Origin: Promethearchaeia archaeon
GTDB taxonomy: Archaea; Asgardarchaeota; Lokiarchaeia; Sigyniarchaeales; SOKP01
Assembly: GCA_029856105.1 (NCBI GenBank)
Contig: JAHQWH010000219.1
Span: 1-14,608, forward strand
Direction of reading: 5' to 3'
DNA length: 14,608 nucleotides
The position numbers were made by a program, and so were the translations under genes. The notes beneath the pieces are model-generated. The model saw only the letters and a list, made by a program, of their open reading frames with translations, was not told the DNA's origin and did not search any database. Positions 13,371 through 13,736 of this stretch are shown here, piece after piece. How positions within the stretch are numbered: position 1 is the stretch's first letter; each line of letters opens with the position of its first letter.

Positions 13371-13393
13371 TGGTTTTCTTATAAAAAACACCA
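13371..13393. terminator. Imperfect inverted repeat with adjacent T/A tracts, candidate terminator between aglH and the micro-ORF
   Basis: TGGTTTTCTTATAAAAAACACCA is an imperfect palindrome centred on TTATAA; the minus strand reads TTTTTT tracts just after the micro-ORF stop. Confidence 0.35.
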
Positions 13394-13395
13394 AA

Positions 13396-13425
13396 TTATG
13401 GTACTGCTCCAGCTTGACCAGGCAT
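13396..13425 (-). CDS. Putative 9-aa micro-peptide MPGQAGAVP
   Basis: ATG CCT GGT CAA GCT GGA GCA GTA CCA TAA; 15/30 GC in very AT-rich flanks; A/T at every internal third position; SD-like AGGTGG 5 nt upstream; TATA-like box further upstream. Confidence 0.5.
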   Translation of the reverse strand: MPGQAGAVP

Positions 13426-13430
13426 TTTTT

Positions 13431-13478
13431 CCACCTTATATATTAATTGAGATGTTTTTAACCTATTTCTCTTATAAA
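13431..13478 (-). promoter_or_regulatory. Candidate TATA box and SD for the micro-ORF
   Basis: Minus strand TTTATAAG (13478-13471), then AGGTGG (13436-13431) followed by AAAAA-ATG. Spacing fits a TSS near 13445-13450. Confidence 0.4.
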
Positions 13479-13736
13479 TTTAAATTCTGAATGAAACTAT
13501 ACTTTTATTTCAAAAAGTTTATTTAAACTTCAATAAAAATTAAAAAATGAATTTCTTTTTAAACCTTGTAAAATTGAATTAGCAATCGAAATTACCATAG
13601 CTATTAAAGTTTATATATACTATTTTTGATCCTCAAAATCAGTAAATGTAATTTTTTAATAGATGTAGGAAATAATTTTAAGGAATTCGTATTTAAATAA
13701 AAATAACAATAAAATTAAGACACAAAGGCTTTTCTA

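Follow-up and report, generated by a model that had tools for sequence, protein, structure and literature searches.

The locus examined here raises the question of whether a gene of only nine codons, with its own expression signals, can lie hidden in the intergenic DNA of an Asgard archaeon. The window, by which we mean the whole stretch of 14,608 nucleotides (nt) analysed (contig JAHQWH010000219.1), comes from a genome assembly of 3.66 Mb in 238 contigs with 31.9% G+C and 92% completeness (G000). A sequence-only reading had proposed that the 380-bp gap at 13357-13736, between an aglH-like gene and a gene for an M48-like peptidase, holds a stand-alone gene for the nonapeptide MPGQAGAVP that is missed by gene callers. 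Comparison with other genomes bears this out: the micro open reading frame (micro-ORF) belongs to a multi-copy family in which frame, start, stop and length are kept. Judged from these comparisons, window 13396-13425 on the minus strand is very probably a translated micro-gene of the MPG-x5-P family.

The nine-codon frame and its family

The micro-ORF and the putative signals around it were located as follows.

13396-13425, minus strand: nine-codon gene MPGQAGAVP followed by TAA, read from the window sequence
13431-13436, minus strand: Shine-Dalgarno (SD)-like AGGTGG, 5 nt before the ATG of the micro-ORF
13454-13478, minus strand: promoter-like A/T-rich blocks, conserved in the paralogue alignment and in a five-species alignment
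13371-13393, minus strand: imperfect hairpin beginning 3 nt past the stop, from RNAfold and family covariation
13355-13366, minus strand: T5CT6 tract, a likely archaeal oligo-T terminator, sharing a few bases with the aglH stop codon

The frame reads ATG CCT GGT CAA GCT GGA GCA GTA CCA TAA, with the start codon at 13423-13425 and the stop at 13396-13398. As the sequence-only reading had stated, it coincides with a GC-rich patch: 15 of its 30 bases are G or C, all eight internal codons end in A or T, and the G+C content is 0.50 over 13400-13429 compared to 0.10-0.27 around it. The SD at 5-nt spacing was likewise found as described. The proposed TATA element TTTATAAG is present at 13471-13478, yet it is one of two candidates, and the other, GGTTAAAAAC at 13454-13463, is better conserved. 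Together these elements make up a unit of about 140 nt consisting of a promoter-like block, SD, nine codons, hairpin and oligo-T tract.

Comparison of the intergenic DNA with its own assembly identified five paralogues of the window copy, 72-75% identical over about 140 nt. In the six aligned copies ATG CCT GGT CAR is constant and is followed by 12 variable bases without insertions or deletions and then by CCA TAA, so that the peptides are MPGQAGAVP (window), MPGQKDAIP, MPGQADAIP, MPGQEGTGP, MPGQDGQIP and MPGQPYIIP. A relaxed pattern, M-P-G-x5-P-stop, added two copies of MPGTADATP. A further unit, MFHSGEVVP, lies on contig C191, 131 nt downstream of a gene for a DUF885-like protein at 62886-64082 on the minus strand (this protein is treated below). 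The paralogue search that had been suggested for this locus thus yielded eight further copies, and the window genome holds nine units: six of the MPGQ type, two MPGTADATP and one MFHSGEVVP. The MFHSGEVVP unit keeps a GTGAG SD, nine codons, terminal Pro, TAA, hairpin and T tract, which implies that the M-P-G start is not obligatory, while length and C-terminal Pro are kept.

Of the 42 genomes in the window's genus, 16 matched a 30-nt pattern derived from the family, at 1-18 places each and 88 in all. Outside the genus, the other 112 genomes of an order-wide search gave 12 single matches, which is chance level, as also indicated by the controls: the reversed pattern matched 9 times in 154 genomes and a 32-nt mis-spaced pattern 11 times in 135 genomes. 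The micro-ORF is more than a chance occurrence. Searched by nucleotide homology, the ~140-nt window unit retrieved its five paralogues and the orthologue in G097 (isolate HM4_B22), the closest relative, with 241 of 243 positions identical; the micro-ORF itself is identical in nucleotides to the G097 copy. The host records are titled as metagenome-assembled genomes (MAGs) of Promethearchaeota or Promethearchaeia, that is, of Asgard archaea. The family, M-P-G-x5-P and rarely with other N-termini, is confined to part of one Promethearchaeota (Asgard, Lokiarchaeia) genus.

Three records carry the archaeal cassette under bacterial labels ('bacterium', 'Candidatus Nanopelagicaceae bacterium'): JAUVKU010000058.1, DATKTW010000159.1 and DATKTW010000114.1 (loci L045, L046 and L063). 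Their peptidase is 69-100% identical to the G097 copy, and they are probably mislabelled or contaminated bins.

The two MPGTADATP copies (loci L084 and L085; C213:5277-5306, minus strand, and C158:12055-12084, plus strand) form a unit of 245 nt that is 94% identical between them; its hairpin is longer and G+C-rich, and the inner stem-loop sequence differs between the two. One copy immediately precedes a gene for an MFS transporter, with the gene of a 1200-amino acid (aa) protein running divergently from the copy; the other is flanked by the genes of a 455-aa protein and a DUF7064/7065 protein. Of these neighbours, the 1200-aa and 455-aa proteins were considered as kin and rejected, being unrelated to each other or to the peptidase, and neither has a Pfam, NCBIfam or PDB sequence match.

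Evidence for translation

The sequence-only reading had called for conservation of frame, start and stop with synonymous third-position changes in related genomes, and both paralogues and orthologues gave a positive result. A GGTG, GTGA or GAGG motif is found at -12 to -6 in every subfamily, those with unrelated flanks included, and in such subfamilies, whose hairpins are also unrelated, the SD-like motif, ATG, nine codons, terminal Pro and stop persist. The conserved codons vary at the third position: T55/A5/C1 at codon 2, T47/G6/A5/C3 at codon 3, and A42/T14/C3/G2 at codon 9. When units were instead anchored on the SD (44 units, selected without those codons), a single first-position change was seen, and the variable segment was free of insertions and deletions. 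An in-frame stop occurs in just one of about 84 family members.

The clade-A orthologues from five species differ mostly synonymously (GCT/GCA, GGA/GGT/GGC, GCA/GCC, CCA/CCT/CCC), in addition to V/I and A/G replacements; those of G087, G124, G111 and G103 encode the same peptide, or its A/G and V/I variants, via synonymous changes. Column identity in the clade-A cassettes is 0.88 for the micro-ORF, 0.85 for the adjoining 1.2-kb peptidase coding sequence and 0.38 for the DNA between the two. Between the window and G097, block 13400-13599 is 99.5% identical, the best-conserved 200-nt block in the 6.5 kb compared; most other blocks reach 86-96% and some in 9400-10999 only 45-81%. The core seems to diversify between paralogues and to be held within orthologous lineages.

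A different explanation takes the unit for a small non-coding RNA whose constant scaffold carries a variable guide or seed of 12-15 nt, the ORF being incidental. The flanks and the hairpin are indeed conserved in nucleotides, the core outpaces the flanks among close paralogues, and the 175 nt that precede the ATG are near-identical in G000 and G097. The wobble-specific variation of the conserved codons, the retention of SD, ATG, nine codons, Pro and stop where flanks and hairpins are unrelated, the rarity of in-frame stops, and the lack of insertions or deletions in the SD-anchored set, the only length variants being two ORFs of ten codons, argue against it. Moreover, reverse complements of the cores have no enriched or consistent targets in the genome, only scattered 12-14-mers inside genes. 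Rfam gave no gathering-level match to the micro-gene region and, at a permissive threshold, only chance-level ones (E > 0.4), and ARAGORN detected no tRNA anywhere in the window. We consider a non-coding function of the unit very unlikely.

As an RNA element the hairpin is genuine, and it covaries: in 36 copies 88.6% of the pairs are formed, six of the ten pairs have changed on both sides, and none of 500 shuffles reached the covariation score. An oligo-T tract lies within 75 nt of the stop in 60 of 61 family elements, at a median distance of 39 nt. Hairpin and T tract are best read as the putative 3' end of a tiny monocistronic transcript. The terminator claimed for the window copy is supported in so far as it has the T5CT6 tract and the covarying family hairpin, but a bacterial-type promoter/terminator scan called no terminator at this copy, because the stem is too poor in G-C pairs and the T run begins 4 nt past it.

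The position of the hairpin, 2-3 nt past the stop, would allow a terminating ribosome to melt it, and a Pro-Gly start and a Pro before the stop are known to slow bacterial translation and termination. It could thus be that the frame serves as a mini-ORF regulating in cis, in the manner of an attenuator or an arrest peptide, and that only the act of translation matters. Such a device would have nothing to regulate: the hairpin and oligo-T tract are followed by convergent or unrelated genes that differ between loci, tandem units each have their own promoter-like block and terminator, and the core residues are conserved in orthologues. At the window locus no minus-strand gene follows and the 3' end of aglH converges, in agreement with the initial view that this is not a leader peptide. 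A purely cis-acting role therefore seems barely credible.

A DUF885-like peptidase as the genomic partner

On the first three other contigs, the micro-ORFs were located 190-400 nt behind the gene of a ~400-aa protein on the same strand. These proteins are paralogues, 80% identical, that carry the motif HEGYPGHH and match DUF885 below threshold. The linkage was assessed from three sides. Starting from the peptidase, 32 homologues from Promethearchaeota, 54-100% identical, had downstream DNA available, and 31 of them are followed on the same strand by one to three MPG... micro-ORFs at 90-950 nt; two of these ORFs are one codon longer (10 codons) and end in PK and PY. Starting from the translation signal, ORFs of 4-16 codons on either strand were collected from 30.9 kb of DNA downstream of peptidase genes: among the 83 preceded by an SD, 43 were MPG... 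on the gene strand, one was MAGQTDPTP with the same flanks, and the rest were unrelated. Starting from the ORF, a peptidase gene was found upstream at 24 of 30 loci picked by pattern alone. All four DUF885-like genes in the window genome have a micro-ORF downstream, while the bacterial peptidase homologues examined (27-30% identical) have none.

The most divergent archaeal homologue, 54% identical, is found in JBHLOF010000018.1 (isolate DZ3M.28; L083); the matched frame contains an internal stop, and no micro-ORF lies within 1.1 kb downstream. The cassette may have decayed there, or this homologue may lie at the family's border.

An AlphaFold2 model of the DUF885-like enzyme has a pLDDT of 92.8, and its best matches in a fold search were three DUF885 structures, followed by M32 carboxypeptidases, ACE/ACE2 and oligoendopeptidase F. 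A profile search with the peptidase alignment against PDB sequences gave no match; only the fold search found relatives. H227, E228, P231, G232, H233, H234, E252 and E267 are invariant even in bacterial homologues of 27% identity. The M32, ACE and oligopeptidase families are zinc peptidases whose closed channel takes short peptides only. Altogether, the family partner is a ~400-aa DUF885-like protein with an HExxPGHH motif, which the structural model predicts to be a zinc peptidase with the closed-channel ACE/M32/oligopeptidase fold. With DUF885 (PF05960; 3o0y, 3iuk, 3u24) it shares fold and HE..PGHH motif, but it scores 17-18 bits compared to a Pfam gathering threshold of 32.4 (the G097 copy has no match at all), has ~400 instead of ~550 aa, shares 11-15% identity with the structures that have been solved, and lacks a lipoprotein signal. 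We know of no DUF885 member for which linkage to a micro-ORF has been described. DUF885 is a member of the Pfam clan Peptidase_MA (PMC12572635). In a quick tree of the peptidase, the types of peptide sort with its clades.

The window copy differs from most of the family in that no DUF885-like gene lies directly upstream on its strand. Alignment with G097 shows how this came about; the features concerned are:

13557-13591, no strand: deletion junction, defined by the overlap of two G097 alignments
11986-13356, plus strand: GT4 glycosyltransferase, aglH-like, convergent (Pfam Glycos_transf_4, E = 2.9e-28)
13737-14608, plus strand: M48-like peptidase, membrane N-terminal part, divergent, cut by the contig end, identified by its G097 orthologue

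The syntenic order in G097 is M48-like peptidase, divergent DUF885-like gene, MPGQAGAVP and converging aglH. Window 11000-13591 aligns to positions 8721-6173 and window 13557-14608 to positions 4753-3702 of the G097 locus (L040), so that about 1.4 kb between the two sides, including the peptidase gene, is present in G097 and missing in the window. The 35 nt common to both alignments are an imperfect direct repeat flanking the peptidase gene in G097. From this alignment the peptidase gene of the window was lost secondarily, by a deletion of ~1.4 kb between short imperfect repeats, and its absence thus does not exclude the window copy from the family.

It follows from the deletion that the adjacency of M48, and of aglH, is accidental. 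M48 was accordingly rejected as a functional partner: its adjacency results from the deletion, and it is absent beside the cassette in four other species. In these (G087, G124, G111 and G103), the cassette, with MPGQAGAVP or variants ending ...AIP and ...GIP, lies between P5C-reductase-like and GHMP-kinase-like genes with no M48 near. The aglH-like gene is not beside these orthologous cassettes either and stands outside the system. The M48-like fragment in the window has no Pfam match of its own; its G097 orthologue has 852 aa, 95% DNA identity and a Peptidase_M48 match (E = 3.1e-16). The window protein at 13737-14606 was also considered as a DUF885 relative, to which it shows no similarity. 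Pfam and NCBIfam scans of neighbouring genes returned only GT4, M48, the DUF885-like protein, CoaBC, NikR and MFS.

Having lost its partner, the window copy could be a functionless relic of a real family, not yet decayed after the deletion. No clade-A peptidase was found elsewhere in the window assembly, which is 92% complete, and the P5C-reductase/GHMP-kinase site is empty in this genome. Furthermore, the sole difference from G097 within the unit, one C-to-A change, makes the hairpin less stable, at -3.8 instead of -10.0 kcal/mol (RNAfold). Two further copies lack an upstream peptidase gene: L022 (G087:C174:1053-1082), which reads MPGQT-TGA-TNP and has thus gained an in-frame stop, and L010 (G089:C75:50695-50724), MPGQGYINP, which is intact. 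Against a relic, the window copy retains an undamaged promoter-like block, SD, ORF and T tract, and the unit falls in the best-conserved block of the G097 comparison; four paralogous DUF885-like peptidases remain elsewhere in the genome, and the assembly is incomplete. We regard a relic at this locus as unlikely.

Elsewhere in the window, the intergenic segment 11800-11999 contains 43 gap columns in the alignment with G097. Positions 9400-10600, within a 626-aa ORF at 9240-11120, are 45-69% identical to G097, whereas the flanking genes are 86-96% identical; this segment is the fast-evolving part of a ribophorin-like or secreted protein.

A possible peptide ligand

With nine codons there is no room for a leader, and the product would therefore be made at or near its final length, with no processing beyond possible removal of Met. 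A Pro at position 2 permits Met removal and then blocks aminopeptidases, while a C-terminal Pro resists most carboxypeptidases. The two prolines may thus shield the peptide from exopeptidases, the invariant caps serving as a stable scaffold and the four to five variable core residues carrying specificity, as would suit a specific small ligand or signal. The partner oligopeptidase would recognise the peptide as substrate and so set its level or lifetime, and for the orphan window copy the four paralogous peptidases of the genome could still act as partners. The ligand or signal reading is favoured by the only constant neighbour being an enzyme of a fold class that acts on short peptides, together with the capped, variable core. 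We give an even chance to the broad form of this proposal, that the leaderless Pro-capped peptide is a ligand or substrate of the ACE/M32-like oligopeptidase. The more specific idea that directly encoded Pro-capped nonapeptides with hypervariable cores serve this genus as a code in peptide form for signalling between or within cells, each read or erased by a dedicated closed-channel zinc oligopeptidase, is put forward tentatively, as a possibility well short of even.

A real peptide might also work with the DUF885-like enzyme without being a signal, namely as a substrate-mimic regulator or inhibitor, or as raw material for a small peptide-derived product. The tight and conserved gene order and the tracking of peptidase clades by peptide types would suit this, as would the proline caps, which make a poor exopeptidase substrate, and the in-frame TGA in the G087:C174 orphan is what would be expected if the peptide were useless without its enzyme. 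However, arrays of two to three different peptides lie behind a single enzyme, the orphans in the window and in G089 are intact, and a hypervariable core is hard to square with one defined product. Modifying enzymes such as radical SAM, YcaO or ATP-grasp proteins do not recur beside the cassette, and the peptidase is the sole recurring neighbour. With no leader either, this leaves the RiPP-like precursor (ribosomally synthesized and post-translationally modified peptide) suggested by the sequence-only reading without support; the signalling peptide and micro-subunit that it had offered besides stay conjectural. We regard a non-signal role beside the enzyme as unlikely, and return to the ligand or signal reading.

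Several observations weigh against that reading. Neighbour scans revealed no receptor or exporter gene beside the DUF885-linked copies, a fact that also suits the non-signal role, and only the separate MPGTADATP subfamily adjoins an MFS transporter. The match between peptide types and peptidase clades may be explained by co-inheritance alone. The activity of the enzyme is predicted from a model, and the peptide may be its substrate, product or inhibitor. At the window copy itself, the lost partner and the weakened hairpin make the present function uncertain. The family is known from the DNA of uncultured MAGs, through sequence and model evidence. Among paralogues grouped by their flanks, change is quicker in the core than in the flanks (0.36 vs 0.20 changes per column), and the synonymous to nonsynonymous ratio of the core, 10:28, is near neutral; this fits diversification, or equally weak constraint on the core. 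A synonymous excess in groups formed by peptide similarity (21:13, P = 2e-5) was discarded, since the grouping was circular. The case for coding therefore rests on the wobble pattern, the conservation in orthologues, the retention of frame and length, and the anchor tests.

Known peptide systems provide partial parallels. The leaderless communication peptides (LCPs) of Firmicutes have 8 aa, and their genes specify no more than the mature peptide (PMC10518010); the endopeptidase PepO degrades SIP (PMC10071013). The SIP/LCP-RopB systems resemble the family in the ultra-short ORF (8 vs 9 residues), which has no secretion leader or processing sites and in the archaeal case would likewise give the peptide at its mature length, in the diversification of peptides between lineages, and in an oligopeptidase that acts on the LCP, as proposed here for the archaeal peptides. 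The sequences are unrelated: LCPs are hydrophobic (MWLILLFL), the archaeal peptides Pro-capped with polar or small residues; the LCP neighbour is an RRNPPA-type receptor and that of the archaeal family a DUF885-like peptidase; and Firmicutes stand against Archaea. Pfam and NCBIfam scans of neighbours found no adjacent RRNPPA-family (HTH + TPR) receptor gene. Because receptor, hydrophobic peptide and homology are all lacking, the LCP/PepO parallel is taken as an analogy, not as membership.

Another tiny gene with its own SD is mccA of the microcin C operon, which with 7 codons is among the shortest known genes and is missed by gene callers. It too is encoded beside an enzyme acting on its peptide, as proposed for the archaeal family. 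MccA, however, ends in Asn and is adenylated by the ThiF-like MccB in an operon with export and immunity genes, whereas the archaeal family has many variable copies and ends in Pro, as all listed copies do except the two 10-codon variants (PK, PY). ThiF-like MccB, export or immunity genes were not among the cassette neighbours scanned. The Rap-Phr/RRNPP systems comprise many paralogous cassettes of protein and small peptide per genome, with diversified cores, and PepF (M3) can degrade such peptides. The archaeal family shares the multi-copy protein/peptide cassettes and the variable cores, and its partner belongs to the same broad fold class as PepF; Phr peptides differ in being cut from secreted precursors of ~40 aa and in having a TPR receptor as partner, while no precursor exists in the archaeal family and neighbour scans revealed no TPR or HTH gene beside the cassettes.

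A limited literature search found no description of this micro-gene family. To our knowledge, which again rests on limited searching, functional nine-codon genes are very few anywhere and none are reported from Archaea; genes of this size are invisible to gene callers. In this family, comparison of genomes points strongly to selection acting on the peptide, and a diversifying multi-copy set of peptides is linked to one particular oligopeptidase. For the DUF885-type peptidases, whose structures are solved but which have no known function, it supplies a candidate for the natural substrate, and one accessible by synthesis. The window contributes a clean orphan with its deletion junction, an M48 adjacency recognised as secondary, the non-MPG variant, and two further orphans, one of them decayed. 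The orphans, intact in the window and in G089 and with a stop in G087, are natural experiments on the need for the neighbouring enzyme; if the signalling reading is true, the window orphan would demonstrate that these genes can function in trans, with no enzyme encoded in cis. Were the peptides to be ligands or signals, the lineage closest to eukaryotes would prove to have regulation or communication by peptides.

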